Shown piece by piece: positions 6,467-41,462 of a stretch of DNA of 64,000 nucleotides; positions within the stretch are counted from its first letter, which is position 1, and every line of letters begins with the position of its first letter. The notes under the pieces are model-generated. The model ran no database searches. It saw only the letters and a program-made list of their open reading frames with translations, and had not been told where the DNA came from. The position numbers and the translations under genes are program-made. Source of the stretch: an uncultured Clostridia bacterium (GTDB lineage Bacteria > Bacillota > DTU025 > MWDF01); contig CAZJHY010000001.1 of NCBI GenBank assembly GCA_964545975.1, positions 24,094-88,093 on the forward strand. Direction: 5' to 3'.

Positions 6467-6473
6467 GGCTGCG

Positions 6474-11065: not shown

Positions 11066-11713
11066 CTACTTGTTCTGCCCGTAAGTCCTGCCGAGGGTGG
11101 AGACCAATGCCTTCACCTGTTCGTCAGTTAGTGAGGATGCCCTGCCTATTTGCGAGGCGTGTATATAGCACGAGCACATCTTCTCCAGAAGCTCGCACCT
11201 TTCAAGGGCCTTCTCAGGCGTGTCAGCGACGCAGACTGACCCGTGATTGGACATTATTGCTGCATTCTTGCTTCCTAGCGCCTTCGCGACGTTCTTTGCT
11301 AGGTCGTCGCTTCCAGACATAGCATAATCCGCTACCTCTACAGCGCCTCCGAAGCTGAAAGCGCATATATCAGTTATGACCGGAAGAGGCATCCTTGCTA
11401 CGCCAAGGGCTATCGCCATGGGTGAATGAACATGAACGACGGCTTTAACCTCAGGCCTGGCAATGTAGATCTCCCTGTGCAGCATGCTTTCTACCGAGGG
11501 CTTAAGCTTTGATGAGGAATACAGTGTCGCCAGATCCAGCTCTACTATCTGCTCAGGGGAAAGCGCCTCATAAGGTATGCCGCTGGGGGTTATCAGCATC
11601 CCGGTTCCTGATTCATTCCTGCAGCTGACATTCCCTCCGGTGCCTATAGTAAGCCCCATTTCCATCATCTTGATGCCGGTCTGGATAATTCTTCTGTTAA
11701 GCTGCTCGTTCAT
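11066..11713 (-). CDS. Class II aldolase/adducin-family protein (FucA/AraD/OtnC-like)
   Basis: 'GLTIGTGGNVSCR', 'HVHSPMAIALG', 'SNHGSVCVADT'. Transcribed divergently from the RLP operon. Confidence 0.8.
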   Translation of the reverse strand: MNEQLNRRIIQTGIKMMEMGLTIGTGGNVSCRNESGTGMLITPSGIPYEALSPEQIVELDLATLYSSSKLKPSVESMLHREIYIARPEVKAVVHVHSPMAIALGVARMPLPVITDICAFSFGGAVEVADYAMSGSDDLAKNVAKALGSKNAAIMSNHGSVCVADTPEKALERCELLEKMCSCYIHASQIGRASSLTDEQVKALVSTLGRTYGQNK

Positions 11714-11893
11714 CTTTCTCCTCCATCTGTGGCTGTTGTATTGCCAGTACGAAATTATACAGTCAATTGCATATTAATATAGCACAATAACCTAACCAGG
11801 TGCGAAGGAGCACGCTGTTTTTAATGTGAGTCAAATACATTGCAAAAGCACAGCATAAAAGCGGTATTGCTTGCATCAGCAGGACACTGCTTC

Positions 11894-11910
11894 CTGAATA
11901 CTGGATTCAG
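11894..11910. promoter_or_regulatory. Palindrome CTGAAT-actgg-ATTCAG flanked by direct repeats GCTTCCTGA, a candidate operator in the divergent intergenic region
   Basis: Seen directly: GCTTCCTGAATACTGGATTCAGCTTCCTGA. Confidence 0.35.
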
Positions 11911-12151
11911 CTTCCTGACGCTTGTCTAGGCAGTTTGATGTATATTTTCCTCCACATAAATGATATTCTATATTAAAGCGTTTCCGGATAGTTGTATATT
12001 ATTGGTACAATCTCCATTAGTATACAATCCAGAAAGGGGTGTTCGGCAGGCAGCTAACCACGGTAGTACCAAAATTACTAGCGACCAATCGCAAGTGGGA
12101 CAAGAAATCAATCTCCAGCGAGAAGTATAAGCAATTAGGGGAGGGAATCTT

Positions 12152-13162
12152 GTGAAGAGAACATTGTTAATCGCGGTTGTACTAGTCATGGCACTAACCA
12201 TCGTAACCGGCACTTTCGCAGCGACTACGCCTCTGTTGGTATCGGGCGGCGGTCTTAAGACGACCACTACCGTCAAGGCCAACTCGAAGTATCTCATCGC
12301 TTGCATCGTTAAGAACTCCACCAATCCTTACATGATCAAGCAGCTTGACGGCTTCAAAGCCGCCGGCGCATTCATGGGCTTCGACGCCGTCGCACTGGCT
12401 CCCGCCAAGGCCGACAACATCGAAGAGCAGGTCAAGATAATCGAAGACCTCATCCAGAAGGGCGTCAAGGGCCTCGTCATCCATCCTTCCGACTCCAACG
12501 GCATAGTCCCGATAGTCGAGAAGGCCATGTCGCTCGGCATCCCCGTGGTCGTAATAGGTACCCCGGCGAATACCGACAAGATATTCTTCCGCACCGGCAT
12601 GGACTATACCGACTCTGGCCGCAAGATCACCGAAGCTGCCATCCAGAAGATGGGCGGCAAGGGCAACGTCATAATACTTGAGGGCCCGCCCCAGGCGATC
12701 AACGCCAAGGAAAGGCTCAACGGCATGCTCGAAACTATAGCCAAGTACCCCGGCGTAAAGGTGCTTGACTCCCAGACCGCAAACTTCAACAGGCTCAACG
12801 CCCTCCAGGTCATGGAGAACCTCCTTCAGAAGCACAAGGACGTGCAGGGAGTCTTCGCGGCCAACGACGAGATGGCCCTCGGCGCGATCCAGGCTCTTGA
12901 AGCCGCCGGCAGGAAGAACGTGGTAGTCTCCGGCGTCGACGGAAGCAAGGACGCCTCGCAGGCGGTCCTCGAAGGCAGGCTCACAGTGACCTCGAATGCA
13001 GACCCCTATTCCAGCTCCTGGTGCGCCGCAGCATACATCGTGAAGTACTTGAACGACGGCACCATGCCGCCCTCCAAGTTCATCCCGTATCCCGCTGAAG
13101 TCGCCATCATCGACAAGAGCAACGTTCAGAACTACATCAACAACGACGCGTGGTGGAAGTAG
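12152..13162 (+). CDS. Sugar ABC transporter substrate-binding protein (PBP type 1, RbsB-like)
   Basis: Signal peptide 'MKRTLLIAVVLVMALTIVTGTFA'; ribose-binding-protein-like core. Confidence 0.8.
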   Translation: MKRTLLIAVVLVMALTIVTGTFAATTPLLVSGGGLKTTTTVKANSKYLIACIVKNSTNPYMIKQLDGFKAAGAFMGFDAVALAPAKADNIEEQVKIIEDLIQKGVKGLVIHPSDSNGIVPIVEKAMSLGIPVVVIGTPANTDKIFFRTGMDYTDSGRKITEAAIQKMGGKGNVIILEGPPQAINAKERLNGMLETIAKYPGVKVLDSQTANFNRLNALQVMENLLQKHKDVQGVFAANDEMALGAIQALEAAGRKNVVVSGVDGSKDASQAVLEGRLTVTSNADPYSSSWCAAAYIVKYLNDGTMPPSKFIPYPAEVAIIDKSNVQNYINNDAWWK

Positions 13163-13180
13163 TCTCATAGAAGTCCTGCT

Positions 13181-13210
13181 ATGGAGCCCTGTCGCAAGAC
13201 GGGGCTCCAT
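13181..13210 (+). promoter_or_regulatory. GC-rich intercistronic hairpin after the substrate-binding-protein gene
   Basis: ATGGAGCCC-12 nt-GGGCTCCAT, a perfect 9-bp stem. The ORF-track start ATG 13181 lies inside this stem. Confidence 0.45.
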
Positions 13211-13231
13211 GCACCCAAGGGGGCGTTATTT

Positions 13232-14752
13232 TTGGAGATAGTACCTATCCTCGAAGCGAGGAACATCAGCAAGGAGTTCCCGGGCGTAAAGGCGTTGGAT
13301 GAAGTATCCATACAGGTAAGGCCCGGCGAGGTCCATGTACTGATAGGAGAGAACGGGGCCGGAAAGAGCACGCTGTCCAAGATACTCATGGGAGTGTATA
13401 CCAGCGACAAGGGCGAGATCCTGTTCGATGGTAAGCCCGCCCACATTAGGAACCCTCATGACGCAAGGGCATTAGGCATATGCGGTGTCCATCAGGAGTT
13501 CATGCTTGTACCCTGGATGAACGTCGCACAGAACATCTTCATCAACAGAGAGCCCAGGATTTGGCCGGGGCTTCCCTTCATAGACCACAAGAAGATGCAC
13601 GAGGACAGCAGGAAGCTGCTTTCCTCCTTCAACGTGAACATCAACACCAAGCAGCCGGTGAAATACCTGGACACCGCGCTCCAGCAGATGGTGGAGATAG
13701 TAAAGGCGCTATCTACGAACCCCAAGGTCCTGATACTTGACGAACCGACTGCAGTCCTCACGGACAGGGAGGTCAACAGCCTCTTCGCCCATATAGAGGA
13801 GCTGAGAAGCCGAGGGGTTGCGATCATATACATATCGCACAGGCTTCCTGAGATCAGAAGGATAGGCGACAGGGTCACGGTCCTAAGAGACGGGAAGTAT
13901 GTAGCAACGGTTGACATCAAGGACACCCCCGACGAGGAGCTCATCAAGATGATGGTGGGCAGGAGCGTTTCGCAGCTTTATACCAGAAACCGCCAGGTTC
14001 CCGGGAAAGAGGCCCTGAGGCTTGAGAATTTCAGCGTGAAGGGCGGACCGCAGAATGTCGACCTGGTGCTGCACTACGGAGAGATCATTGGGCTTGCGGG
14101 CCTGATTGGTTCAGGGCGCACCGAGCTTGTCAGGGGCATCATGGGAATTGACCAGCAGACAGGCGGTTCCCTTTACATCGATGGCAACAAAGTCACGGTC
14201 GGAAGCCCTGACAAGGCGATAGGACTGGGGCTGGGGCTTCTGCCTGAGGACCGCAAGAGGTATGGCCTCGCCCTTAAGACGAACATCGCCTGGAATACCA
14301 TAATGGCGAGCCTCAAGCGGGAGTTCCCCAAGGGAGTAGTAAGGGAGCGCAAGGTGCGCGACATCGCCCAGGGCTATGTTAAGCAGCTGAAAATCGCCAC
14401 AGACTCGGTATCTAAGGTGGTGGGCTTCCTAAGCGGAGGCAACCAGCAGAAGGTTGTCGTCGCCAAGTGGATCAACACCAAGGCCAAGATCCTCATCTTC
14501 GACGAACCTACAAGGGGCATCGACGTGGGGGCCAAGGCAGAGGTGCACGCCCTCATGGACAAACTGGTGGCCGAAGGAAACGCGATCATAATGATTTCCT
14601 CCGACCTGCCGGAAGTCCTCGGGATGAGCGACCGCGTCTACACGATATTCCAGTGCCGTTCCATGGGGGACTGCTGCTTCCAGGAGGCGAACCAGCAGAG
14701 AATCGGCTCCCTTATGCTGGGAGTGGGGGTGAAGACAGATGCAAACCAGTAA
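13232..14752 (+). CDS. Sugar ABC transporter ATP-binding protein with duplicated ATPase domains (RbsA/MglA/XylG family)
   Basis: 'LEARNISKEFPGVKALDEVS', Walker A 'GENGAGKST'; second cassette 'LSGGNQQKVVVAKW'. TTG 13232 with a GGGGG RBS is preferred over ATG 13181, which sits in the hairpin. Confidence 0.8.
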   Translation: MEIVPILEARNISKEFPGVKALDEVSIQVRPGEVHVLIGENGAGKSTLSKILMGVYTSDKGEILFDGKPAHIRNPHDARALGICGVHQEFMLVPWMNVAQNIFINREPRIWPGLPFIDHKKMHEDSRKLLSSFNVNINTKQPVKYLDTALQQMVEIVKALSTNPKVLILDEPTAVLTDREVNSLFAHIEELRSRGVAIIYISHRLPEIRRIGDRVTVLRDGKYVATVDIKDTPDEELIKMMVGRSVSQLYTRNRQVPGKEALRLENFSVKGGPQNVDLVLHYGEIIGLAGLIGSGRTELVRGIMGIDQQTGGSLYIDGNKVTVGSPDKAIGLGLGLLPEDRKRYGLALKTNIAWNTIMASLKREFPKGVVRERKVRDIAQGYVKQLKIATDSVSKVVGFLSGGNQQKVVVAKWINTKAKILIFDEPTRGIDVGAKAEVHALMDKLVAEGNAIIMISSDLPEVLGMSDRVYTIFQCRSMGDCCFQEANQQRIGSLMLGVGVKTDANQ

Positions 14753-15704
14753 GCTCATGGGCTTTTTGAGGAAGGTCCCGCCGGCGACATACATCATACT
14801 GCTCATGATAGCCATATACGGCATCGCCGCGCCCGGCTTCTTCACCCTTGGAAACCTCGAGAACGTCGGAAACCAGGCGGCCCCCCTTCTCATCGTCGCC
14901 ATAGGTGTGACCATGGTCATCATGACGGAGGGTACAGACCTTTCGATCGGTTATGTGATGGGCATGGTCGGAGTCGTTGTATCGATTATGCTTAGGGCGA
15001 AAATCTGGATAGGCTGGGCGTTCCTTGCCGGCATCGCGGTAGGGGTGTTCTGCGGCTTCATAAACGGCGTCGCAGTCGCAAAGCTCAAGCTTCCTCCGTT
15101 CATTGCTACGCTTGGTACCGGAAACGTCATATTCGGAATAGGCCTCGTCATAACCGAAGGATACTCCATACAGGCACTTGATCCTGCGCTGCTTTTTCTG
15201 GCAAGCGGCAAGGTGTTCGGAATAAGCATGCCGATACTGATTGCCACGGTGGTCTTCGGGTTATGCTGGGTACTCATGAACTACACGCCGTTCGGGCGCA
15301 ACATAGTCTCTCTCGGAGGCAACTCCGAGGCGCTTAGAGGCGTTGGCCTTAACGTCGGGAAAGCCTCCATATCGGTATACATGATGTGTGGCTTCCTTGC
15401 GGCAATAGGAGGCCTCATAGTGGCGTCAAGGACAGGCTCAGGCTATTCGGCGGCTGCCATGGGATGGGAGTTCGACGCCATCGGAGCCAGTATAATCGGC
15501 GGTACATCCTTCGAGGAGGGCAATGGATCCATAAGCAGGACCGTAATTGGTGTCGCGCTCATATCGATACTCAGAAACGGCCTTAATGTCGTGGGCGTGC
15601 CGAACATGTACCAGTACGCGCTCATCGGCGCCATAGTGCTGACGGCCATAATCCTGGACGTTCGCTTCAGGCAGGCCGCGAAGGGAGGCGTCAAGAGAGT
15701 ATGA
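14739..15704 (+). CDS. Sugar ABC transporter permease (RbsC/branched monosaccharide family)
   Basis: Polytopic; 'GGTSFEEGNGSISRTVIG' conserved permease region. Confidence 0.8.
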   Translation: MQTSKLMGFLRKVPPATYIILLMIAIYGIAAPGFFTLGNLENVGNQAAPLLIVAIGVTMVIMTEGTDLSIGYVMGMVGVVVSIMLRAKIWIGWAFLAGIAVGVFCGFINGVAVAKLKLPPFIATLGTGNVIFGIGLVITEGYSIQALDPALLFLASGKVFGISMPILIATVVFGLCWVLMNYTPFGRNIVSLGGNSEALRGVGLNVGKASISVYMMCGFLAAIGGLIVASRTGSGYSAAAMGWEFDAIGASIIGGTSFEEGNGSISRTVIGVALISILRNGLNVVGVPNMYQYALIGAIVLTAIILDVRFRQAAKGGVKRV

Positions 15705-16696
15705 ACGAAGGTTCAAGGATGAAGGACACCCCCAAGGCGGTCGCAATCGTAAACGACAGGCTCAAGGCAAGGGAGGCCATAGCTCCCCTCTTCAGGCTCA
15801 CGTTCCTGATAGTCCTCATGATCGCACTTTCCATACTCAGCGAGGACTTCTTCACATGGAGCAACCTAATTAACGTTCTCAGGCAGTCGACTTTCCTGAT
15901 AGTAATCGGCCTCGGGCTCACAGGGGTGCTGCTTACCGGAGGCATCGACCTGTCCGTAGGCGGTGTGCTCGCATTCGTGGGCTGCGCGACTGGACAGATG
16001 ATGAGATCCGGCGTTCCGCTTTATCTTGCAGTGCCAATCGGTCTTCTAATCGGAGCGGGAGTCGGATGCTTCAACGGTTTCATGGTGGGGTACATCAAGC
16101 TTCCTCCGTTTGTGGCCACTTACGGTTCCAAGTGGATATCCGAGGGCATGGCGCTGCTTCTTATGCAGGGGCAGGTCATCTACGGCTTCCCGAGGGTGTA
16201 CCGCTGGATCGGCATCGGCTACATAGGACCCATACCAGTGCCCATCATAATTGCTGCCATCCTTGCGGTAATAATGAACTTCCTGTTCGTGAAGACCGTA
16301 TTCGGCAGGCAGGTATATGCACTGGGCGCCAACAAGGAAGCAGCATTCTACTCGGGCATCAAAGTCAAGAAGAACATCATGGTGGTATACACCCTTGCTG
16401 GCCTCATGGCGGGCATTGCCGGCCTTCTGATGCTTGCAAGGCTTGACGCCGCCGAGGTGAACATGGGAGAGGCCCTGCAGCTGCAGTCCCTCGCCGCGGT
16501 CATCATCGGGGGTGCATCCCTTCGCGGAGGCGAGGGCAGCATATTCGGCACGATAATTGGCGCCATAACCCTTACGCTGGTCGTAAACGGGCTTAACCTG
16601 CTTGGCGTGCGCTCTTTGTGGCACTCAGTGGTGCTCGGCGGCGTCATCCTGGCATCCGTGATAATGGACCTGCGCATGAAGAAGCTGGCGCAATAA
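15701..16696 (+). CDS. Sugar ABC transporter permease, second subunit
   Basis: Paralogue of the previous permease ('GGASLRGGEGSIFGTIIG'); ATGA start/stop overlap. Confidence 0.8.
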   Translation: MNEGSRMKDTPKAVAIVNDRLKAREAIAPLFRLTFLIVLMIALSILSEDFFTWSNLINVLRQSTFLIVIGLGLTGVLLTGGIDLSVGGVLAFVGCATGQMMRSGVPLYLAVPIGLLIGAGVGCFNGFMVGYIKLPPFVATYGSKWISEGMALLLMQGQVIYGFPRVYRWIGIGYIGPIPVPIIIAAILAVIMNFLFVKTVFGRQVYALGANKEAAFYSGIKVKKNIMVVYTLAGLMAGIAGLLMLARLDAAEVNMGEALQLQSLAAVIIGGASLRGGEGSIFGTIIGAITLTLVVNGLNLLGVRSLWHSVVLGGVILASVIMDLRMKKLAQ

Positions 16697-16727
16697 GGAT
16701 TAGCAGAAAGAAAAAGGAGGAACACCA

Positions 16728-17537
16728 ATGGCCAACCTTACGATCAGACCCATAAACACCGGTTACGCGGAAACCTACAAGAAGCAGTACCAGTACCATC
16801 ATTCTACCCACAAGTACCACAACGTCGACGACGGAAAGCTTCTTCTGCCCTGCATGGCATTCCTTATCGAGGGCGGAGACAAGCTCGTGCTGGTAGACAC
16901 CGGCATGTCCAACACCGAGATAGCCAACAAGTATCATCATCCGGGTTCGTACCAGCCTGACGGCTTTGCGATACATGAGCAGCTGGCGAAGCTGGGCATC
17001 AAGTGCGAGGACATCGACATTGTCATCTTCACGCACATGCACTGGGACCACATGCACAACATGGAGAAGTTCGTAAACGCCAGGTTCATCGCCCACAAGA
17101 AGGAATGGGAGTTCTGCCAGAACCCCATCCCGCTGTACTACAAATCATACGAGCATCCCAAGCTCGGCATAAAGGCTCCCTTCACTGGCCTTAAGATCGA
17201 GACCGTAGAGGGCGAGCAGGAGATAGTCCCCGGCATAAGGGTGTTCGAGAGCTTCGGGCATTCGCCGGGCCACATGTCCGTGGAAGTCGACTGCGAGGAC
17301 GGATCCTACATCCTCTGCGGCGATGCGGTATTCATCTACGACAACCTTAAGCCCGTGCCGGACATGTTCTATGAGATTACTCCCCCGGCCAGGTATGCCA
17401 ACATCGTCGAGTGCTGGAACAGCATAGTCGAGATGAAGCATAGGGCCAAGGAGCAGCGCTTCATACTGCCCTCCCATGAGCCTGAGATAGAGGAGCTCGC
17501 GAAGAAGTACGGAACTTTCCCGATACCCAAGAAGTAA
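16728..17537 (+). CDS. MBL-fold metallohydrolase, lactonase-like
   Basis: 'IVIFTHMHWDHMHN' (HxHxDH) and 'FGHSPGH'. Strong AAGGAGG RBS. Confidence 0.75.
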   Translation: MANLTIRPINTGYAETYKKQYQYHHSTHKYHNVDDGKLLLPCMAFLIEGGDKLVLVDTGMSNTEIANKYHHPGSYQPDGFAIHEQLAKLGIKCEDIDIVIFTHMHWDHMHNMEKFVNARFIAHKKEWEFCQNPIPLYYKSYEHPKLGIKAPFTGLKIETVEGEQEIVPGIRVFESFGHSPGHMSVEVDCEDGSYILCGDAVFIYDNLKPVPDMFYEITPPARYANIVECWNSIVEMKHRAKEQRFILPSHEPEIEELAKKYGTFPIPKK

Positions 17538-17619
17538 CATCACACCGATTGGGGGTGCGGCCGGGAGGCAGGTCCAAGGGGGCGCGGGCCTCCGAAGACA
17601 GCCAACCCGGCCTTGTCAT

Positions 17620-18843
17620 ATGAAGACTATCGCAGTGATAACCTCGCTGGACACGAAGGGGAAAGAGACCCTCTATATAAAGGATGCGATCGAGAGGTTC
17701 GGCTCGAAGGCTCTCATCATAGACGTAGGGGTCAAGGAGCCGCCATATTTCACGCCTGATATCGCAAGGCACGAGGTGGCCGCCGCCGCCGGCATCGACT
17801 GGGATACGGTGAAGGACAAGGAGAAAAGGGTGAGGATAAGCACCATGACCTCAGGCCTTGAGGTGCTTATACCCAAGCTATATGCCGAGGGGAAGCTTTC
17901 GGCCGTGTTCTCGATGGGAGGCCTTCAGAACACAACGATGGGAACATCGGCGATGAAGACCCTGCCGCTCGGGGTGCCTAAGCTCATGCTTTCCACGATG
18001 GCGTCCAGCAACAGGCCTTTCGGTCCGTTCGTGGGAACCAAGGACATGACCCTCATGCACTCGGTGGGCGACATCCTAGGGGTAAACCCCGTCACCAAGG
18101 CCGTGATGGATAACGCCGTCGGAGCCATCGTGGGGATGGCGGAGCACGCCGGAAACAGGGTGCAGAAAACTGACAGGATCCTTGTGGGTGCCACTATGCT
18201 CGGCGTAACGAACGACGGAGTGAGCCGCGCGGTATCCTACCTCGAGGAGGCAGGCTACGACGTGGTCACCTTCCATGCGAACGGTGCGGGAGGACCGGCC
18301 ATGGAGGAGCTCATAGGACAGGACACGATAGACGCCGCGATGGATCTTACGCTGCATGAGATAGACGCTGAATTCTTCGGGGGGCACTGTTCGGGGGCGA
18401 CCAACAGGCTCCTTATGGCCGCCGAGAAGGGGATACCCCAGGTTGTTTCGCTTGGTGCCTCCGACGTCATAGACTATGAGGTCGTGGACCTCGACAAGGT
18501 AAGGGAGTATGGAAGGCGCAAGTTCGTCTATCAGCACCCCACCATCCAGCACATAAAGCTCATAGAGGAAGAGGCGCACAAGGTCGGGACGGTAATCGGG
18601 GAGAGGCTCTCAAAGGCCAAGGGTCCCCTAACCCTCGTCATACCTAGGGGAGGCTTCCACCAGAGCAGCTACAAAGGCGGTCCCATATGGGATCCTGCCA
18701 TCGACGAGATAATCATAGGACACATACTAAGCAGGATTGCGCCTTCCACAAGGGTGGTAGAGACCGCAGCCCATATCAACGAGCCCGCCTTCAGCAGGGT
18801 GGCGGCCGATGAGATGATTAAGCTTCTGAAGGCCATGCGCTAA
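17620..18843 (+). CDS. UPF0261 (Tm-1-like N-terminal domain) family protein of unknown function
   Basis: 'MKTIAVITSLDTKGKE', 'GGLQNTTMGTSAMKTLPLGVPKLMLSTMASSN', 'MTLMHSVGDILGVN', matching the UPF0261 pattern from memory. Confidence 0.65.
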   Translation: MKTIAVITSLDTKGKETLYIKDAIERFGSKALIIDVGVKEPPYFTPDIARHEVAAAAGIDWDTVKDKEKRVRISTMTSGLEVLIPKLYAEGKLSAVFSMGGLQNTTMGTSAMKTLPLGVPKLMLSTMASSNRPFGPFVGTKDMTLMHSVGDILGVNPVTKAVMDNAVGAIVGMAEHAGNRVQKTDRILVGATMLGVTNDGVSRAVSYLEEAGYDVVTFHANGAGGPAMEELIGQDTIDAAMDLTLHEIDAEFFGGHCSGATNRLLMAAEKGIPQVVSLGASDVIDYEVVDLDKVREYGRRKFVYQHPTIQHIKLIEEEAHKVGTVIGERLSKAKGPLTLVIPRGGFHQSSYKGGPIWDPAIDEIIIGHILSRIAPSTRVVETAAHINEPAFSRVAADEMIKLLKAMR

Positions 18844-18875
18844 GCAGGGCCAGAAGCCTCACAAGGAGGATTCCG

Positions 18876-20132
18876 ATGTTCTACGGACTGCCTTTCGACA
18901 ACCCCGAGTCCATTTATGGCAGGGATTACGTTCTGGGCACCTATTTCGTGACCGGCGTCACAGGAGACGATGCGCTTAATAAGCTGGGCATGTTTGCAGT
19001 CGGCCAGTCCACCGGCACGTGGATGCCGGTGCCCGGCATAACCAGGCAGATGGTGGAGGATCATCAGGGAAGAGTCGTCGGATGCTATCCGGTGCCCGCC
19101 CAGGAGCCCGGCGCCTACGTTCTTAGGGTGGCGTTTCCCTACAGCAACATAGGCGGGTCCATCTCGATGCTGCTTACCACGCTTGCGGGAAACGACGCTT
19201 CGACTGCGCTGTGCGCGAAGCTCATAGACGTGGAGCTTGTCGGCAAGGCGAAGTCGGCCTTCCACGGTCCGCACTTCGGAATAGACGGGGTGAGGAAGCT
19301 CACGGGAGTCTACGACAGGCCCATAGTCATGAATATGATCAAGCCTTGCACGGGCTTTCCGGCTACGGCAGGGGCGGAGTTCTTCTACGCGTCCGGATCA
19401 GGCGGCGTAGACATAATAAAAGATGACGAGCTTATGGGCAACACCAGCTTCAATTCCGTCGCCGACAGGGTGAGGGAGTATGGTAAGGCTCAAGCGAGAA
19501 TCGGAGGAGAGAGGGGCAAGGCCCCTATATACCTTCCCAATGTGACCGACAGGCACGATAAAATGCGCGACAACATCAAGGCGGCGATAGACGGCGGAGC
19601 GAAGGGCGTCATGGTCAACTTCGTCTTCACCGGACTCGACAGCCTTGCCGCGCTTACATCGGAGTTCGGCGACAAGGTGATGTTCCTCGCTCATGCGGCA
19701 GGAGTTGGCGTCATGACCGGTTATCCGCAGGGCTTAAGCACCTCGCTTCTTCTAGGAAGGCTCGGAAGGCTGGCAGGCGCGGACGCGGTGGTCACCCTTT
19801 ATCCTCTCGGCATGGGAGGAGACGGCTTCCAGGAGCTTCAGATGACGGTGCAGAAGCACAGGCTGCCTCTGGGAGATGTCAAGCAAGCCTTGACCGTGGT
19901 CGGAGGAGGCGTCACGCCGCTTACCGTACCGTTTGCGGTGAAGAGCTTCGGCAAGGACATAATCATCGCCGTTGGCGGTGGCATCCAGGGCCACCCGGAC
20001 GGGGCGACGGCAGGCGCAAAGGCCATGATGGCTGCGGTGGATGCGACCATGAAGGGCGTAAGCCTGGAAGACGCGGTTAAGGACAGCCCGGAGCTCGGAA
20101 GGGCGATAACCAGATGGGGCAAGAAGGCTTAA
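18876..20132 (+). CDS. RuBisCO large-subunit-like protein (form IV RLP)
   Basis: 'GQSTGTWMPV' (RuBisCO STGTWTTVWT-like), 'MIKPCTGF' (KPK region, K175 equivalent kept, K177 changed to Cys), 'GGVDIIKDDE' (carbamyl-Lys/KDDE motif), 'AVGGGIQGHPDG' (loop-6/GGG region). 418 aa, no small subunit. AAGGAGG RBS. Confidence 0.8.
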   Translation: MFYGLPFDNPESIYGRDYVLGTYFVTGVTGDDALNKLGMFAVGQSTGTWMPVPGITRQMVEDHQGRVVGCYPVPAQEPGAYVLRVAFPYSNIGGSISMLLTTLAGNDASTALCAKLIDVELVGKAKSAFHGPHFGIDGVRKLTGVYDRPIVMNMIKPCTGFPATAGAEFFYASGSGGVDIIKDDELMGNTSFNSVADRVREYGKAQARIGGERGKAPIYLPNVTDRHDKMRDNIKAAIDGGAKGVMVNFVFTGLDSLAALTSEFGDKVMFLAHAAGVGVMTGYPQGLSTSLLLGRLGRLAGADAVVTLYPLGMGGDGFQELQMTVQKHRLPLGDVKQALTVVGGGVTPLTVPFAVKSFGKDIIIAVGGGIQGHPDGATAGAKAMMAAVDATMKGVSLEDAVKDSPELGRAITRWGKKA

Positions 20133-20169
20133 GGGCCGCCCGAATGATGACCGTATGGAGGTAAAGCAG

Positions 20170-20793
20170 ATGGAAGATCTTATCATGAGCATAAAAAGGG
20201 ACGTGGAGCTCGCCTGCAGGAGGGCGTACACGAGGGGAATACAGACCGGAAGCGGCGGAAACGTCAGCGCAAGGATACCGGGCACGGACCATATGATAGT
20301 GAAGCCAAGCAAGGTGTCGCTCATCGAATGCGACCCCGAGACGCTTATCATAACCGACTTCGACGGAAACTTGGTGCAGGGCTCTCTTCCTCCTACGAGG
20401 GAGGCGGTGCTTCACGGCTGGCTGTATAAGAAGTTCGGCAAGATCGGAGCGGTGGTTCACACCCATTCGCCCTGGGCTATATCCTGGTCCTTCACCAGGA
20501 GGGACCTTCCCAATATTACCATGCATACTCAGCTTAAGCTGGGATGCCCCATCCCGGTCAGGTTCTTCTCCAGCCCCAAGGGGGTTCTGAAGGAGGAGAT
20601 GCCAGAAGTCTACGGCCTTTTCGAGAAGGAACCGAACCTCGCCGCCTTCATACTCGGTGCGCACGGTGTGGTCGCAGTCGGCGACAATATCATAGAGGCC
20701 GAGCACACGGCGGAGCTCATAGAGGAGACGGCACAGATAGCATACCTGCACGAGATGGGATTGAAGCTCGGGATGTTCCCCGAGGGCAGATAA
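20170..20793 (+). CDS. Class II aldolase/adducin-family protein
   Basis: 'GIQTGSGGNVSARIPG', 'AVVHTHSPWAISWS'. ATG 20170 with GGAGG RBS preferred over 20155. Confidence 0.8.
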   Translation: MEDLIMSIKRDVELACRRAYTRGIQTGSGGNVSARIPGTDHMIVKPSKVSLIECDPETLIITDFDGNLVQGSLPPTREAVLHGWLYKKFGKIGAVVHTHSPWAISWSFTRRDLPNITMHTQLKLGCPIPVRFFSSPKGVLKEEMPEVYGLFEKEPNLAAFILGAHGVVAVGDNIIEAEHTAELIEETAQIAYLHEMGLKLGMFPEGR

Positions 20794-20822
20794 GACGAAG
20801 ACAATCCGAACGGAGTGATCAT

Positions 20823-21284
20823 ATGTACAGGAAGATGGTAATAGGCTGCGACGAGGCGGCCTGTGAGCTGAAAAACGCCCTTATCGAGGTCCTTAAGAAG
20901 AAGGGAATTGAGTATGAGGACGTCGGAGTGCCGGATGCAAGCGACAAGACCTATTATCCCCTGGTGGCAGAGAAGGTGGCCGAGGCGATAATAGAAAGCG
21001 GCTATGAGAAGCACGGGATGCTCCTCTGCGGAACGGGCATCGGCATGGCCATATCCGCGAACAAGCACCCCGGGGTATTTGCCGCTGTATGCCACGACCA
21101 GTATTCTACCGAGAGGGCGAAGCTGAGCAACAACTGCAACGTCATCTGCATGGGGGCAAGGGTCATAGGGCCAGAGCTTGCCAAGAAGAACCTGGAGCAA
21201 TGGCTTGAGCTGACGTTCAAGGACGGCTCCTCGACCCCTAAGGTGGAGGCTGTGAAGGATATCGAGAAGAGGCATATGAAATGA
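20823..21284 (+). CDS. RpiB/LacAB-family sugar-phosphate isomerase
   Basis: 'MKIGCDEAA', 'LLCGTGIGMAISANKHPGVFAA', 'NCNVICMGARVIG'. The upstream part of track ORF 20544 is an artefactual N-terminal extension. Confidence 0.8.
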   Translation: MYRKMVIGCDEAACELKNALIEVLKKKGIEYEDVGVPDASDKTYYPLVAEKVAEAIIESGYEKHGMLLCGTGIGMAISANKHPGVFAAVCHDQYSTERAKLSNNCNVICMGARVIGPELAKKNLEQWLELTFKDGSSTPKVEAVKDIEKRHMK

Positions 21285-22075
21285 GGAGCCCGCTTCTTGT
21301 CGGCACGAACCTCAAGATGTACAAGGGCGTGAAGGAGACGCTGGAGTTCCTTTCGCGCCTTGCGGGAAACGTCAGCCACATAGGCAGCGAAGACATGACG
21401 CTCTTCGTCATACCCTCCTACCTTGCCCTTCATGCGGCATGCGGGTCTGATGCGCACAGCAGGATACTCCTTGGCGCGCAGAATCTGCACTGGGAGGACT
21501 CCGGGCAGTTCACCGGTGAGATATCCCCCATGATGCTCAAGGAGATAGGCATAGATATCGCTGAGATCGGCCACTCGGAACGAAGGCAGCTTTTCGGTGA
21601 GACGGACGTGACAGTGGGGCTTAAGGCCAAGGCAGCGCTCAGGCACGGCATGAGGGCCCTGGTATGCATAGGGGAGACCGCAGACGACAAGGCGTCGGGC
21701 ATTACCTATGAGAAGCTGAGGATGCAGGTGAAGGTGGCCTTAAAGGGGATTTCTGCGGATGAGCTCGAGGGGCTTTGGGTAGCATACGAGCCGGTATGGG
21801 CCATCGGGATCCACGGGGTCCCGGCTGAGCCCGGATACGCCGAGAAGAGCCACAGGATGATAAAAGACGTGCTGGAAGAGCTTTACCCTAATAAGGGCGC
21901 AGGCGTTCCCGTGCTGTACGGCGGAAGCGTCAACATGGAAAACGCCATGGAGCTCATCGTCCAGCCGAGCATAGACGGCTTGTTCATAGGAAGGACCGCT
22001 TGGGACGCGGACAGGTTCGCGTCGCTGATCAAGGATGTCCTCCCCTTGTGGAAGGCCAAGGCTGAGAGAGAATAG
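21281..22075 (+). CDS. Triose-phosphate-isomerase (TIM) family protein, divergent paralogue, possibly a tetrulose-phosphate isomerase
   Basis: 'LVGTNLKMYKG', 'AQNLHWEDSGQFTGEISPMMLKEIG', 'IGHSERRQ', 'YEPVWAIG', 'YGGSV'. ATGA overlap with the upstream gene. Confidence 0.7.
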   Translation: MRSPLLVGTNLKMYKGVKETLEFLSRLAGNVSHIGSEDMTLFVIPSYLALHAACGSDAHSRILLGAQNLHWEDSGQFTGEISPMMLKEIGIDIAEIGHSERRQLFGETDVTVGLKAKAALRHGMRALVCIGETADDKASGITYEKLRMQVKVALKGISADELEGLWVAYEPVWAIGIHGVPAEPGYAEKSHRMIKDVLEELYPNKGAGVPVLYGGSVNMENAMELIVQPSIDGLFIGRTAWDADRFASLIKDVLPLWKAKAERE

Positions 22076-22104
22076 GGCAAGGCTTACGAAGGCGGTGTGA
22101 TGCA

Positions 22105-22776
22105 ATGGCGGACATGGTCATGGAGGCGAAAAGGCAGTTAATAGAGATCGGAAGGCAGATAGCTGCCAAGGGACTTGTGATAGGACCCGGCGGAAATACC
22201 AGCTTAAGGGCAGGCGCCCTCATGGTGATATCCGCCAGCGGCTCTTCATTCGAGTGCTCCGACGAGAGCGACTACGTCGCGATAGACATAGAGACAGGAA
22301 AACAGGCCGACGGCGGCAAGAGGCCGTCTTCCGAAGTGCTGATGCACCTTGAGTGCTACAGGAGGCGCCCGGATGTAAACGCTGTAGTCCATACCCATCC
22401 GACGTGGTCGACATCTGTAGCAAGCTCGGGCACCAAGATGCCCCCGATGTTCCCGGATTACGTCGTGTTCGTGGGCAAGCCCGCGACCCTGGATTACGTG
22501 ATACCGACGACGAAGCTTCTGGCCGATGCCGTGGCCGAAGTCATAGGGGAGCATAATGTGGTGCTCATGAGCAATCACGGGGTGCTTGCCGTCGCAGGCG
22601 ACCTCAAGATGGCGCTATTAAGGGTGGAGCTGGCAGAGGAGAACGCAAGGATGCTCGTGATAGCAAACTCCCTCGGCAAGCCGCGATCCCTTACGGATGC
22701 CGAAGTCCAGGCGATATTTGACCTGGAGAGCGAGAAGTACAGGCAGAGGCTTCTGAAAAACGAGGGCGGGAAGTAG
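22105..22776 (+). CDS. Class II aldolase/adducin-family protein
   Basis: 'GLVIGPGGNTSLRAG', 'AVVHTHPTWSTS', 'SNHGVLAVAGD'. Confidence 0.8.
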   Translation: MADMVMEAKRQLIEIGRQIAAKGLVIGPGGNTSLRAGALMVISASGSSFECSDESDYVAIDIETGKQADGGKRPSSEVLMHLECYRRRPDVNAVVHTHPTWSTSVASSGTKMPPMFPDYVVFVGKPATLDYVIPTTKLLADAVAEVIGEHNVVLMSNHGVLAVAGDLKMALLRVELAEENARMLVIANSLGKPRSLTDAEVQAIFDLESEKYRQRLLKNEGGK

Positions 22777-22798
22777 TCCTAAAAAGGAGGACGCACCA

Positions 22799-24271
22799 TT
22801 GTCCGACAGGCTTTTCATGGGGATAGACGTGGGCACGGGCGGAGCCAGGGTCATAGTCTGCGACGAGTACGGGTTGCCCCTGGCGGAAAGCTCGAGGCCG
22901 TTTGCCGCAGGTGCCGGCGCATCTGACATGCCCCAGGGCTGGCATCAGCAGTCGCCCGCAGCCTGGTGGGACGCGACTTCCGCATGTATAAGGCAGGTCA
23001 TGGGCTCACCCGGACTCGGCGGAAATCCTGGCAGGGTGTTCTCTGTTTCCGTCACATCCACATCAGGTACTGTGATCCCGCTTAGGGAGGATTGCGAACC
23101 GCTCTGGGATGCGGTCATGTACAACGACAGCAGGTCGTCCGCGCAGGCGGAAAGGGCGAACGAGGCGCTTAAGGAATTATGCGGGAAGCTCGCCTACAGG
23201 TTCGACACATCCTTCGGGCTTCCGAAGATGCTATGGTTCATGGACAGCAAGCCTGAGCTGTTCAGAAGGACCAGATTCTTCGTCCACGCTGGCGATTATA
23301 TTATCGGGAAGCTCTGCGGCTGCTTCGGTTTCACCGACTATTCCAACTCGCTGAAGTCTGGATACGACATCGATGAGCTGATATGGCCGAAGGAGATAGA
23401 GGAGAAACTGGGCGTCCCGGCGTCCAAACTGCCGGAAGTGCTCGCCCCGGGCACGGTAGTCGGGAAGGTCTGCGCCGCCTGCTCCGCAGAGACGGGCCTT
23501 CCGGAAAGCACCAACGTCGCGCTGGGCATGACGGACGGCTGCGCCTCGCAGATTGCATCGGGTGCCGCGTCCTTAGGCGACTGGAACACCACGATCGGCA
23601 CAACGCTTGTAATCAAGGGGGTCACCGAGAGGCTCCTCTTCGACCCGAAGGGAAGGATATACAGCCACAGGCATCCCGACGGGCACTGGATGCCAGGCGG
23701 GGCCAGCAACGTCGGCGGCGACTGCATAAGAAGCAACTTCCGCGACGATGAGCTGGATACGCTGAACGCGTCCGTGCGCCCTGAGAAGCCGACAGGCATG
23801 CTGGTGTACCCTCTGGAGAAGAAGGGCGAGAGGTTCCCGAACAGAGATCCTTTGGCAGAGGGGTTCATAATGGGAAGCCCATCAGGAAGGCCCGAGCTCT
23901 ATCAGGCCTACCTTGAGGGTGTTGCGCTGGTGGAGAAGATGTCATACGAGATGCTTCAGAGCTTGGGGGCGGCAATCGGTGACACGATCTTTGCGGCGGG
24001 AGGCGCCACGAAAAGCGAGCCATGGCTCAAGGTAAGGTCGAATATGCTCGACCGGCGCATTGCAGTCCCGGAGATTGCAGGAGGATTCATGGGAGCCGCC
24101 ATACTAGCAGCTTCCCTCTCCCATTGGGGCTCGCTCGGTGAGGCTGCCAAAAACATGGTAAAAATTTCCAAGACGATATGCCCGGACCCTGCCGCTGTCG
24201 ATGCCTATAAGGATAAGTACGGGCAGTTCATAAGAGAGATGGGAAGCAGGGGATATACCCTGGAGGGATGA
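22799..24271 (+). CDS. FGGY-family carbohydrate kinase
   Basis: 'FMGIDVGTGGARVIV' N-terminal actin-like motif; about 490 aa; TTG start with AAGGAGG RBS. Confidence 0.8.
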   Translation: MSDRLFMGIDVGTGGARVIVCDEYGLPLAESSRPFAAGAGASDMPQGWHQQSPAAWWDATSACIRQVMGSPGLGGNPGRVFSVSVTSTSGTVIPLREDCEPLWDAVMYNDSRSSAQAERANEALKELCGKLAYRFDTSFGLPKMLWFMDSKPELFRRTRFFVHAGDYIIGKLCGCFGFTDYSNSLKSGYDIDELIWPKEIEEKLGVPASKLPEVLAPGTVVGKVCAACSAETGLPESTNVALGMTDGCASQIASGAASLGDWNTTIGTTLVIKGVTERLLFDPKGRIYSHRHPDGHWMPGGASNVGGDCIRSNFRDDELDTLNASVRPEKPTGMLVYPLEKKGERFPNRDPLAEGFIMGSPSGRPELYQAYLEGVALVEKMSYEMLQSLGAAIGDTIFAAGGATKSEPWLKVRSNMLDRRIAVPEIAGGFMGAAILAASLSHWGSLGEAAKNMVKISKTICPDPAAVDAYKDKYGQFIREMGSRGYTLEG

Positions 24272-24275
24272 TGAT

Positions 24276-25673
24276 ATGAGCATTTACAAGGCCTGCGACA
24301 TAAGGGGAGTCTACCCTTCGTCGCTCGACGAGAAGACGTCATACGATATAGGAGCGGCTTTGGGGGAGATGCTCGGCCCTGTAAGCATGCTCGTCGCAGG
24401 CGACGTGAGGGTCAGCACGCCGCCTTTGAAGCAAAGCCTTATAAACGGCCTTGTGGACGCCGGATGCGAAGTAGTGGACATCGGCATGGCCCCGACCCCG
24501 GCCTTCTACTACGCGCTTCATAAGCTGGGCACCGAGTCGGGCGTGACGGTGACGGCATCCCATAATCCGGCCAAGTACAACGGCTTCAAGATAGCGCCGC
24601 ACGGGCAGCCCATGACTGAAGACGTGATGGACGACCTGAGGAAGATGGTCGAAGCTGGAGGATTCAAGCCATATGGGCAAGGGAGCGTAAGGAAGGCTGA
24701 GGTCATCGAGGATTACAAGAGATTCGTGCTTGATAAGATAGGAGAGCTAACGGGAACGAAGTGCAGCGCTCATGGTTCGAGTAATGCCCTCAAAGCCGTG
24801 GTGGACTGCGGCAACGGCTGCTACAGCACGATAGCCCCTGAAGTTCTAAGGCAAGCTGGCATCGCGGTTGAGGAGCTCTATTGCTGGGAGGATGGAACTT
24901 TCCCTAACAGGGAGCCAAACCCAGCTGTAGCTGAGAATCTCGAGGCTTTATGCGGCAAGGTCAGAGATACGGGGGCAGACCTTGGCATTGCCTTCGACGG
25001 GGACGGTGACAGGGTGGTCTTCGTGGACGAGCTGGGCAAAGTGGTCCCTAGCGACAATGCGATAGCACTTTTCGCCGGCTTCCTCCTTAAGAATCACCCC
25101 GGCTCGAAGGTGGTTTTCGACATCAAGTGCTCAAGCCTTGTGTCGGATTCGATCAAGGCGGCGGGCGGCATTCCAGTGATGGAGAAGTCAGGCCACGCTT
25201 ACATCAAGAACAACCTGCTGAGAAACGGCGCGGTTTTCGCAGGCGAGATCAGCGGGCACTTCTTCTTCCAGGTGCTCAAGGGGGATGACGGGCTGTTCGC
25301 GGCTCTTCTGATGGCCGAGATCATGATGTCGGAGGGCAGAAGCCTGGGGAAGATGGTGGAGTCGCAGCCGAAGTACTTCACTACAAGAGACTTCAGGATA
25401 CCGTTCTCGGGGAGCACGGCCGAGCTGTTCGGAAGGCTCAAAGCGCGCCTTGAGGCAAGCGGAGGCGCAAACCTGTCGTACCTGGACGGCATAAGGGCGG
25501 AGTTTTCTGAAGGCTGGGGGCTTATAAGGGCATCAGTCACTGAGCCACTGGTTACGCTGAGGTTCGAGGGGAAGTCGTTGGAGAGCCTTGATAGGATAAG
25601 GGATAGCTTCCTTGCTGCAGATGAGGACTTGCTTGATGCCGTAAGGGAGGTTTGGGCAAACCATCTTCCTTAG
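24276..25673 (+). CDS. Phosphohexomutase-family phosphomutase (PGM/PMM-like)
   Basis: Active-site 'VTASHNPAKYNGFK', metal loop 'FDGDGDR'. Confidence 0.8.
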   Translation: MSIYKACDIRGVYPSSLDEKTSYDIGAALGEMLGPVSMLVAGDVRVSTPPLKQSLINGLVDAGCEVVDIGMAPTPAFYYALHKLGTESGVTVTASHNPAKYNGFKIAPHGQPMTEDVMDDLRKMVEAGGFKPYGQGSVRKAEVIEDYKRFVLDKIGELTGTKCSAHGSSNALKAVVDCGNGCYSTIAPEVLRQAGIAVEELYCWEDGTFPNREPNPAVAENLEALCGKVRDTGADLGIAFDGDGDRVVFVDELGKVVPSDNAIALFAGFLLKNHPGSKVVFDIKCSSLVSDSIKAAGGIPVMEKSGHAYIKNNLLRNGAVFAGEISGHFFFQVLKGDDGLFAALLMAEIMMSEGRSLGKMVESQPKYFTTRDFRIPFSGSTAELFGRLKARLEASGGANLSYLDGIRAEFSEGWGLIRASVTEPLVTLRFEGKSLESLDRIRDSFLAADEDLLDAVREVWANHLP

Positions 25674-26372: not shown

Positions 26373-26496
26373 AATGAACCACCTCCTGCAACTTTCATTC
26401 TACCATCACTGGAGATCCTTTTCCCTCTGCCTTGAGTTGAGGTGAAAAAGGTTTCATTAGCAGCAATGATGCAGAGCTGTTCCGTATTGCCGCAAT

Positions 26497-26512
26497 TGTA
26501 ACAAAGTATACA
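26497..26512. promoter_or_regulatory. Candidate Crp/Fnr-family site TGTAA-N6-ATACA in the divergent intergenic region
   Basis: Near-palindrome (4/5 matching arms) about 90 bp upstream of the DapA-family gene. Confidence 0.25.
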
Positions 26513-26598
26513 AATCCTATTCATATACTGAAATACTTTGAGCTTCGTCCTATATTTGAATCGGAGGCCATTAATCTTCCCGCATAAGGAGGGATATC

Positions 26599-27513: not shown

Positions 27514-27602
27514 GCTCGAAAGACCTGATCGAATAGAATTGGCAAGTTGCTTCGAAGCATAGTGGGAAGCAGATAAAAAGAAACGAAGGAGGAAGACCTG
27601 TC

Positions 27603-28577: not shown

Positions 28578-28594
28578 GCTTCCTTAAAGCAGCA

Positions 28595-28617: not shown

Positions 28618-28640
28618 CAAGACTTATGGGGGTATATGCC

Positions 28641-41451: not shown

Positions 41452-41462
41452 GAAGGGTGCAG

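Follow-up and report, generated by a model that had tools for sequence, protein, structure and literature searches.

The DNA analysed here (the window) is a 64,000-nucleotide (64-kb) stretch of contig CAZJHY010000001.1 from an uncultured Clostridia bacterium. Its positions 11066 to 25673 hold a predicted carbohydrate operon in which a gene for a form IV RuBisCO-like protein (RLP) lies beside a gene for a UPF0261 (Tm-1-like) protein. An open reading frame map and Pfam searches reproduced the gene list and domains of a preliminary description of this DNA, comprising 13 + strand genes and a divergent class II aldolase gene, and its gene calls needed only one correction, to the start of the RpiB-family gene (about position 20823). 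Intergenic distances across the operon range from -14 to +82 bp, and a terminator scan found no convincing + strand terminator inside it; promoter and terminator counts in these scans did not exceed those of shuffled sequence, and they are informative solely for the lack of a strong internal + strand terminator. The interval from 11066 to 25673 contains no gene for an oxidoreductase, a DUF1537 protein or an Mtn enzyme. The source annotations of the locus are generic or automatic. The + strand genes are predicted to form one catabolic operon, made of a conserved cassette plus an accessory set of kinase, mutase and aldolase genes added in this lineage.

Proteins encoded by the operon

The RLP gene (18876-20132, +) encodes a protein that matches RuBisCO_large (PF00016) with 135.8 bits and reaches no curated NCBIfam equivalog. 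Its scores were 265.8 and 220 against the MtnW models NF007095 (cutoff 409) and TIGR03332 (cutoff 513.6), 128 against the OiaX model NF042437 (cutoff 700) and 207 against a form III model (cutoff 497). The best PDB matches, 4NAS and 2OEK, are MtnW-type proteins with a slight lead over a form III enzyme, and the RLP is 32-33% identical to MtnW and 27-29% identical to two annotated OiaX proteins. The analysis covered 85 related loci, made up of the contexts of 5 RLP homologues and 80 genome loci. In a neighbour-joining tree the RLPs of the 80 loci and the window RLP form one clade, sister to MtnW, and the OiaX and DUF1537-linked proteins form a separate clade.

We aligned the RLP with a form I large subunit, Priestia MtnW, the two annotated OiaX proteins and another DUF1537-linked RLP. 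The window RLP keeps N106 (RuBisCO N123), K156-P-C158, K182/D184/E185, H273 and G367/G368, and its clade keeps RuBisCO positions K175, K201, D203, E204, H294, N123, T65/W66 and the G403/G404 pair, which we take to be the P1 phosphate site. Across the clade K156, K182, D184, E185 and H273 are invariant; the catalytic Lys/Asp/Glu metal ligands (K182/D184/E185), which the preliminary description had left to be checked by alignment, are thus retained. K177 is replaced by an invariant Cys, R295 by Ala and S379 by Gly, and H327 and K334 are gone with a shortened loop 6. The loss of these five residues rules out a carboxylating RuBisCO of forms I-III. R295 and H298, presumably the second-phosphate site, are both lost, which fits a substrate with a single phosphate. 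RuBisCO position 123 is Asn in the RLP (N106, in LAGNDAS) and in all of 27 clade members, Lys in Priestia MtnW (VFGK-LS) and Gly in OiaX, which keeps R295. The catalytic Lys of MtnW was reportedly identified by Imker et al. in 2007 as K98 of the Geobacillus protein, at this same position. By these patterns the protein is a true form IV RLP that has a single phosphate site, and it falls outside both the MtnW and the OiaX families.

Searches with tblastn (Priestia proteins as the Mtn queries) found no homologue of MtnA, MtnK, MtnX, MtnD, OiaK, ApnO or ApsD in the window or the 85 loci. The MtnB query retrieved only weak matches to generic Aldolase_II genes, and one of the related loci gave a weak Gfo/Idh/MocA match. 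The absence of methionine salvage genes, DUF1537 and dehydrogenases from the locus, recorded in the preliminary description, was borne out by Pfam and tblastn.

The UPF0261 gene (17620-18843, +) encodes a predicted ATP-dependent kinase with UPF0261 and UPF0261_C domains (PF06792, 184 bits; PF23189, 208 bits), and the protein passes NF002674 (397, cutoff 335). We know of no carbohydrate substrate for any UPF0261 protein. The best PDB match is MarK (9MPY, 153 bits), a UPF0261 multiple aromatic kinase of Novosphingobium whose ATP-dependent phosphorylation of phenolic ketones in lignin-monomer catabolism is the only catalytic activity demonstrated for the family (PMC12624787). The preliminary description had treated UPF0261 as a family of unknown function; it is in fact a kinase family (PMC12624787). 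K13 of the window protein aligns with K16 of 9MPY, the activating Lys of MarK E16K, and corresponds to Lys20 of Tm-1.

The distribution of the UPF0261 gene, which is the gene most tightly tied to the RLP, bears on its role. None of 45 UPF0261-positive loci has a phosphotransferase system (PTS), and among 15 UPF0261-negative loci five carry an EIIA_2/PTS_IIB/EIIC-GAT (Ula/Gat-type) PTS and five an FGGY kinase. Because this distribution is complementary to that of PTS and FGGY genes, and because of the MarK activity and the matching Lys, the UPF0261 protein is probably the kinase of the pathway. We also considered a non-catalytic accessory factor of the RLP, and the replacement of UPF0261 by PTS or FGGY genes in loci that lack it argues for a phosphorylating role instead.

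The TIM paralogue (21281-22075, +; TIM domain) has as its best PDB match 11EF, deposited as an L-erythrulose-1-phosphate isomerase, with 202.5 bits against at most 179 for every triose-phosphate isomerase (TPI). A one-residue insertion in loop 6, G-x-x-G-(I/V)-P-A, is common to the window TIM, 11EF, the TIM adjacent to oiaX in Rhizobium and all cassette TIMs examined, and in the same proteins FIGR(S/T)AW replaces the loop-8 GGAS of Thermotoga TPI 1B9B. The window TIM is 49% identical to the TIM beside oiaX in Rhizobium and is predicted to be of LerI type. The NF000722 'triose-phosphate isomerase' equivalog gave 295.8 on the window TIM (cutoff 293) and 425 bits on the TIM of the oiaX cluster of Rhizobium sp. 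N621 (L090, 8170-8973). Because the oiaX-cluster TIM passes this model, automatic annotation appears to name LerI-type enzymes TPI and would mislabel the window TIM likewise.

The RpiB/LacA/LacB-family sugar-phosphate isomerase gene (20823-21284, +; LacAB_rpiB) was called mechanically as 20544-21284, an open reading frame that overlaps the preceding gene and in which the Pfam match begins only at residue 99. The likely start is the ATG at 20823, with GGAG 8 nt upstream. The protein passes subfamily models only, and the Rhizobium RpiB beside oiaX passes the DerI equivalog (255.7 vs 240). LerI and DerI together convert L-erythrulose-1-phosphate to erythrose-4-phosphate (PMC10733421). The proposal of the preliminary description that the TIM and RpiB pair points to tetrulose-phosphate chemistry gains support from the best solved relative of the TIM.

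The remaining conserved genes encode an importer, a hydrolase and an aldolase-family protein. The RbsB-like ABC substrate-binding protein (12152-13162, +; Peripla_BP_4, 200 bits) is closest in the PDB to the ribose-binding protein 2IOY (168 bits), and the apiose-binding proteins 5IBQ and 4RY0 score about 117. On alignment to E. coli RbsB (our numbering), D89/R90 are replaced by G/T and F15/F16 by Y/M; we take these RbsB residues to be ribose ligands. Because they are replaced, ribose is probably not the ligand, and what the binding protein says of its ligand is limited to this non-conservation of ribose-specific contacts. A dual-domain ABC ATPase (13181-14752, +; two ABC_tran matches), which is kept in the cassette, and two BPD_transp_2 permeases follow (14739-15704, +, overlapping the ATPase gene by 14 bp, and 15701-16696, +, overlapping the first permease gene by 4 bp). 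The lactonase-type metallo-beta-lactamase-fold (MBL) hydrolase (16728-17537, +; Lactamase_B) has 4-pyridoxolactonase and AiiA-type lactonases as its best NCBIfam and PDB relatives, all below cutoffs, and its HxHxDH metal motif is complete (HMHWDH). AldII_a (20155-20793, +; Aldolase_II), which is the class II aldolase-family member of the core cassette, keeps the His ligands (HTH...H) and the FucA-type Glu (PPTRE). Its best PDB match is 6BTD (62 bits), which we take to be the 5-deoxyribulose-1-P aldolase of Bacillus. AldII_a reaches no NCBIfam cutoff, and its best model there is an L-ribulose-5-P 4-epimerase subfamily.

Conservation of the cassette and its accessory genes

We analysed the related loci by searching with the proteins of the window and by de novo clustering of open reading frames. 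Among them, 31 close loci have adequate flanks and an RLP at least 47% identical to the window RLP. UPF0261 is present in all 31, directly beside the RLP, and a class II aldolase-family gene in 30 of 31. The ABC system was found in 28/31, the MBL hydrolase in 25/31, and TIM and RpiB together in 24/31. These counts define the conserved unit as a ten-gene cassette, ABC-MBL-UPF0261-RLP-AldII-RpiB-TIM, with four ABC importer genes. A GntR/FCD regulator, the usual companion of the cassette, is present in 32 loci. The cassette spans Bacillota, Acidobacteriota, Chloroflexota and Spirochaetota, with hosts among Clostridia, Christensenellaceae, Oscillospiraceae, Acidobacteriota, Anaerolineae and spirochaetes, and uncultured anaerobes carry it widely. 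Because the gene order recurs in independent contigs of several phyla, the arrangement is not due to chance.

The cassette carries no regular redox enzyme. Any listed oxidoreductase was present in just 7 of the 31 close loci, and a search across the related loci for a consistently linked oxidoreductase found none: an aldehyde:ferredoxin oxidoreductase (AFOR) occurs in 8 loci, a 2-hydroxyacid dehydrogenase in 5 and a Zn-ADH in 5. Lacking a dehydrogenase is a stable property of the cassette rather than an accident of this contig.

The preliminary description had taken the 13 + strand genes as one pathway unit. All 13 genes are present, but they do not form one conserved pathway, as the FGGY kinase, the mutase and the second aldolase of the operon (AldII_b) are accessory, as is the divergent aldolase. 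FGGY genes occur in 4 and mutase genes in 3 of the 31 close loci, and outside the window close homologues of these four accessory genes are confined to its nearest relatives (L001, L002/L007 and L009). The FGGY carbohydrate kinase (22799-24271, +; FGGY_N and FGGY_C) is most similar in the PDB to the putative sugar kinases 5HTR and 5HTN (187 bits), presumably AtXK-1/SePSK kinases; its close homologues are 58-60% identical, and distant FGGY genes occur in a few other loci. The phosphohexo/pentomutase-family mutase (24276-25673, +; PGM_PMM domains I-IV), also confined to the closest relatives, is nearest to archaeal-type PMM/PGM enzymes (best NCBIfam model Arch_GlmM, 354, cutoff 439). The FucA-like AldII_b (22105-22776, +; Aldolase_II) scored 130 against the FucA model PRK06833 (cutoff 264) and has close homologues that are 56-79% identical. 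The divergent, FucA-like class II aldolase-family gene (11066-11713, -; Aldolase_II, 163 bits) gave its best NCBIfam scores with L-ribulose-5-P 4-epimerase (143 bits) and FucA-type (141 bits) models, all below cutoff, and lies at a matching divergent position only in L001 and L009. Against the OtnC model NF043034 (cutoff 250), AldII_a, AldII_b and the divergent protein scored 85, 98 and 102. In L001, a relative at 80% identity, the divergent aldolase (2071-2717), one permease (5797-6761) and the mutase (15487-16893) are each called as two fragments, which may reflect frameshifts from assembly errors or decay of accessory genes.

A leader and divergent promoter region of 438 bp (11714-12151, +) precedes the operon. 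The AT-rich leader of the preliminary description is real, with a GC fraction of 0.44 (500-bp composition window 11500-11999) against 0.55-0.61 within the operon. It contains a 14-nt inverted repeat at 11992-12027 (TTGTATATTATTGG / CCATTAGTATACAA), which is partly kept in the L001 and L009 leaders and looks like a GntR-type site, a putative operator. No GntR gene adjoins the operon in this contig, whereas related cassettes usually carry a GntR/FCD regulator. An Rfam search of the leader for riboswitches and other known RNAs gave nothing above noise. At the other end (25686-30506), a Crp/Fnr-family regulator gene converges on the operon, with its stop 12 bp from the mutase stop, and is followed by a DHDPS-family gene (200.5 vs the dapA cutoff of 206) and a TAXI-type TRAP transporter. 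The Crp/Fnr regulator and DHDPS genes adjoin the operon in L009 too, but not in L001.

Several related loci depart from the composition of the window. In loci without the MBL type of the window, an Amidohydro_2 gene adjoins the RLP. In Petroclostridium and Clostridium magnum (L057, 11175-15896; L069, 11274-15821) the RLP is followed by Amidohydro_2, PEP_hydrolase-like, UPF0261, DUF1097 and Lactamase_B_2 genes; plant Tm-1-like proteins consist of a UPF0261 half and a PEP_hydrolase half. Related cassettes occur in the cultured organisms Clostridium magnum DSM 2767, Petroclostridium sp. X23 and Lactonifactor longoviformis DSM 17459. Repeated pairs of UPF0261 and URO-D-like genes lie directly upstream of the RLP in L058 (1468-8718) and L063 (3474-9989), and a URO-D-like gene also follows the RLP in an AFOR-containing Bacillota variant (L014, L022). 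Two Chloroflexota loci have two RLP genes flanking a Ula/Gat-type PTS (L056, 2325-3647(-) and 9956-11263(+); L065, 2305-3636(-) and 9980-11266(+)), together with a PRD-EIIA regulator and a class I/II aminotransferase between the RLP genes, which suggests that the substrate of this sub-clade is nitrogen-containing or otherwise different. In a PTS-linked Erysipelotrichaceae variant a conserved 209-aa protein without any Pfam or NCBIfam match is encoded between the RLP and the aldolase-family gene (L075, 11254-11883; same position in L062).

Two further gene groups lie elsewhere in the window. A fourth class II aldolase-family gene (34967-35758, +; best curated match OtnC, 116 bits, cutoff 250) sits between a flavin amine-oxidase-like gene (32887-34758) and an MFS transporter gene (35857-37152), and this region may be a separate small acid-sugar module. 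At 40483-45099 (+), genes for a D-2-hydroxyacid dehydrogenase, a LarA-like protein (lactate racemase family) and an HMGL-like lyase/synthase adjoin one another as an unusual trio, and a gene for a branched-chain-type ABC binding protein comes next.

A candidate route to erythrose 4-phosphate

We infer the activities, the substrate and the order of steps from domain content, conservation, residue patterns and family relationships. Our tentative reading, for which we would claim a little less than probability, is that the cassette encodes a redox-neutral acid-sugar or lactone route that runs through a tetrulose phosphate to erythrose 4-phosphate, as an analogue of the apiose RLP route. The ribose-type ABC system would import a furanose-like sugar lactone or acid sugar that already bears a carbonyl, and the lactonase-type MBL hydrolase would open the ring. 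UPF0261 would then phosphorylate the ring-opened product with ATP, as its distribution and the activity of MarK suggest. Through its Mg2+/carbamate site and single phosphate site, the RLP would make the 2,3-enediolate of a ketose 1-phosphate, most likely in decarboxylating a beta-keto-acid phosphate as the apiose RLPs do (OiaC-like), or alternatively in 3-epimerising (EryC-like) or isomerising a tetrulose phosphate. The expected product is L-erythrulose 1-phosphate, which the LerI-type TIM paralogue would convert to D-erythrulose 4-phosphate and the RpiB-family isomerase to D-erythrose 4-phosphate. Within this route, which would use no redox step, AldII_a may act on a ketose phosphate of the dihydroxyacetone phosphate (DHAP) type, and the FGGY kinase, mutase and FucA-like aldolases probably channel a free sugar of related type into the main trunk.

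The tetrulose route is proposed because the best solved relative of the TIM is an L-erythrulose-1-phosphate isomerase with which it has the loop-6 and loop-8 signatures in common. An acid-sugar substrate is hinted at by the lactonase-type MBL with its intact metal site, the GntR/FCD regulators and the occurrence of Amidohydro_2 where the MBL type is absent. The proposal is further supported by the RLP, which keeps its catalytic core and has lost the second-phosphate residues, and by the like architecture of the Rhizobium oiaX cluster. However, several observations weigh against it. The RLP clade is sister to MtnW and not to OiaX in the neighbour-joining tree, and the window RLP and OiaX carry different residues at RuBisCO position 123 (Asn and Gly, respectively), 177 (Cys and Ala) and 295 (Ala and Arg). 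The window RpiB falls below the DerI cutoff (NF051858, 152 vs 240). No enzyme of the cassette can create the keto group of an OiaC-type substrate, and the imported compound would have to carry it already; the route sketched in the preliminary description likewise has no source for its 3-oxo group. The class II aldolase-family gene, present almost throughout, is left without an assigned step. Finally, a sub-lineage (L014, L017, L018, L022 and L023) keeps UPF0261-RLP-AldII without MBL, TIM and RpiB, and has AFOR and a URO-D-like protein in their place.

The origin of the keto group, the place of AldII and the AFOR sub-lineage motivated the main alternative, in which the pathway is a shunt to DHAP. 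UPF0261 would phosphorylate a sugar, the RLP would isomerise it by moving the carbonyl, in the manner of the Rhodospirillum rubrum RLP acting on methylthioribulose-1-P, and the class II aldolase would cleave the product to DHAP and an aldehyde; the TIM would act on DHAP, and AFOR would remove the aldehyde in some lineages. Such a route matches the invariant trio UPF0261-RLP-AldII (31, 31 and 30 of 31 loci), with MBL, TIM and RpiB sometimes missing, as well as the sister relationship to MtnW and the AFOR genes inside several cassette operons, and being redox-neutral it accounts for the lack of a dehydrogenase. AldII_a keeps the FucA-type Glu and His ligands, and its best solved relative, 6BTD, is taken to be a 5-deoxyribulose-1-P aldolase; yet it reaches just 62 bits to that structure and passes no curated aldolase model. 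Moreover, the TIM is of LerI type rather than a standard TPI and is paired with RpiB in 24/31 loci, and the shunt gives no role to a lactonase-type MBL or to FCD regulators. We consider it unlikely.

Two further alternatives carry less weight, and we regard each as improbable. One is a Gram-positive or anaerobe version of the oxidative D-apiose pathway that takes apionolactone or apionate as substrate, with the MBL hydrolase as apionolactonase, UPF0261 in place of OiaK and an RLP isofunctional with OiaC/OiaX. The architecture matches the oiaX cluster, the binding protein is related to the apiose-binding proteins 5IBQ and 4RY0, and the hosts are gut and soil degraders of plant polymers. However, ribose binders outscore apiose binders as relatives of the binding protein (168 vs 117 bits), the active-site residues of the RLP are unlike those of OiaX and its OiaX model score is 128 against a cutoff of 700. 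Homologues of ApnO (the oxidoisomerase) and ApsD (the dehydrogenase) are absent from the window and the 85 loci; with OiaK also absent throughout and OiaX membership failing, a straight D-apiose oxidative pathway is unlikely. The other is a Ula-like route of ascorbate type. Its substrate would be an enediol lactone, for example L-ascorbate, erythorbate, erythroascorbate or dehydroascorbate; the MBL hydrolase would open the lactone as UlaG does, a kinase would phosphorylate the product, the RLP would replace UlaD as decarboxylase of the 3-keto-acid phosphate and a class II aldolase-family protein would replace UlaF. Enediol lactones hydrolyse straight to keto acids, which would account for the missing dehydrogenase, and the best NCBIfam model of AldII_a is the L-ribulose-5-P 4-epimerase subfamily; but AldII_a has an aldolase-type Glu where AraD has Asp. 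Related RLPs of Erysipelotrichaceae and Chloroflexota stand beside EIIA_2/PTS_IIB/EIIC-GAT transporters, which we take to be the Pfam families of UlaABC, but these families are equally those of galactitol systems. There is no UlaE-like epimerase, and a hexose-derived route would lead to pentulose phosphates and leave the LerI-type TIM without a role.

A variant of methionine salvage, with the RLP as the MtnW enolase and the class II aldolase-family protein as MtnB, would fit the MtnW-type proteins being the closest solved and curated relatives. We rejected it as highly improbable on the catalytic residue, the model scores and the missing partner genes: the MtnW catalytic Lys is Asn throughout the clade, the MtnW models gave 266 and 220 against cutoffs of 409 and 514, the window and the 85 loci lack MtnA, MtnK, MtnX and MtnD, and MtnB scores fall below cutoff. 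The D-hamamelose pathway of Ochrobactrum anthropi, described by Kim et al. in 2018, reportedly has an RLP oxygenase that acts on a bisphosphate and two dehydrogenases in its cluster. A pathway of this type is disfavoured here, given the missing R295/H298 and the absence of a dehydrogenase.

We found no description of the RLP-UPF0261 cassette in the full-text literature searched, although some subscription papers lay outside the search and a prior description is possible. The preliminary description had failed to match the gene set to a described pathway, and we too found no curated family (NCBIfam, June 2026) or paper; curated models give the RLP, AldII_a and the UPF0261 protein no functional name. 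By analogy, the pathway logic (an RLP, an unusual kinase, LerI/DerI and a ribose-type ABC system) is of a known kind. The RLP reaction and the UPF0261 substrate have a substantial chance of being new. The fuller claim falls somewhat short of probable, namely that the RLP clade has a reaction or substrate new to the RuBisCO superfamily, that a UPF0261 carbohydrate kinase makes this substrate, and that the two belong to a widespread dehydrogenase-free route for a plant sugar lactone or acid. Two reactions are candidates: the RLP may decarboxylate a new carboxy- or keto-sugar-acid phosphate, or it may 3-epimerise a ketose 1-phosphate, the second presumably being the xylulose-bisphosphate 'misfire' chemistry of RuBisCO put to use. 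Candidates for the plant compound include a branched acid sugar from rhamnogalacturonan-II and a product of ascorbate breakdown.

To our knowledge only a handful of RLP functions have been established, and each showed unexpected chemistry on the RuBisCO scaffold. If the proposal is true, it would give the UPF0261 family its first sugar-related function and would mean that a sugar lactone or acid of plant origin, for which no catabolic pathway is known, is consumed by soil bacteria and anaerobes. It would also identify a nutrient of abundant anaerobes of gut and soil about which little is understood, among them Christensenellaceae, Oscillospiraceae, Acidobacteriota and Anaerolineae. RLP and UPF0261 are completely linked across several phyla, and the cassette that holds them is small enough for reconstitution; the locus so makes both the function of the RLP clade and the role of UPF0261 in carbohydrate metabolism directly testable. 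For synthetic erythrulose-phosphate cycles, the LerI/DerI-type end of the route is of practical interest.

Comparison with known systems

The locus, which the preliminary description put forward as a candidate for an undescribed system, has a clear analogue in the published D-apiose oxidative cluster. That pathway, said to have been described by Carter et al. in 2018, reportedly comprises ApsD, ApnL, ApnO, OiaK, the RLP OiaC/OiaX, LerI and DerI. In Rhizobium sp. N621 the cluster order is oiaX, a DUF1537 kinase, TIM, RpiB, a 6PGDH_C-domain protein, a ribose-type ABC system and Gfo/Idh/MocA, and the Rhizobium oiaX reference cluster also has a GntR-type regulator. Annotated proteobacterial RLP genes are directly followed by a DUF1537 'four-carbon acid sugar kinase'. 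In both the D-apiose cluster and the window an RLP lies directly beside an unusual acid-sugar kinase, although the kinase families differ (DUF1537 vs UPF0261), and both have a TIM-family/RpiB-family pair and a ribose-type ABC importer. The likeness extends to the probable end product, erythrose-4-phosphate, and to a GntR-type regulator in the related loci, though not in this window. The window differs in lacking apiose dehydrogenase and apionate oxidoisomerase. It has gained a class II aldolase-family protein together with an MBL hydrolase, and its RLP, at 27-29% identity to OiaX, belongs to a different clade with a different active-site make-up.

The nearest characterised RLP clade is MtnW (YkrW), the 2,3-diketo-5-methylthiopentyl-1-phosphate enolase of Bacillus-type methionine salvage. 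Both keep the K175/K201/D203/E204/H294 core, have only one phosphate site and are partnered by a protein of the class II aldolase family, but the window RLP has Asn for Lys at position 123, is not accompanied by mtnA/K/X/D and stands in the context of a sugar importer and isomerases. MarK is of the same fold family as the window UPF0261 protein, and the ATP-contacting Lys is conserved; MarK acts in lignin-monomer catabolism, whereas the window UPF0261 belongs to a carbohydrate operon, beside an RLP.

The tetronate (L-threonate/D-erythronate) pathway of LtnD, OtnI, OtnK and OtnC resembles the cassette in using an unusual kinase followed by an Aldolase_II-family decarboxylase that gives DHAP (PMC12540250). 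However, the locus lacks LtnD, OtnI and DUF1537, and its three class II aldolase-family proteins score 85-102 with OtnC against a cutoff of 250. Erythritol and tetritol catabolism in Brucella and Mycobacterium smegmatis (EryC, EryH/LerI, EryI/DerI) has the pair of LerI-type TIM and RpiB-family isomerase in common with the operon, which in turn has no polyol kinase or dehydrogenase, no EryC homologue and an RpiB below the DerI cutoff. By analogy with that pathway, the RLP could fill the role of an EryC-type 3-epimerase by way of the same enediolate.

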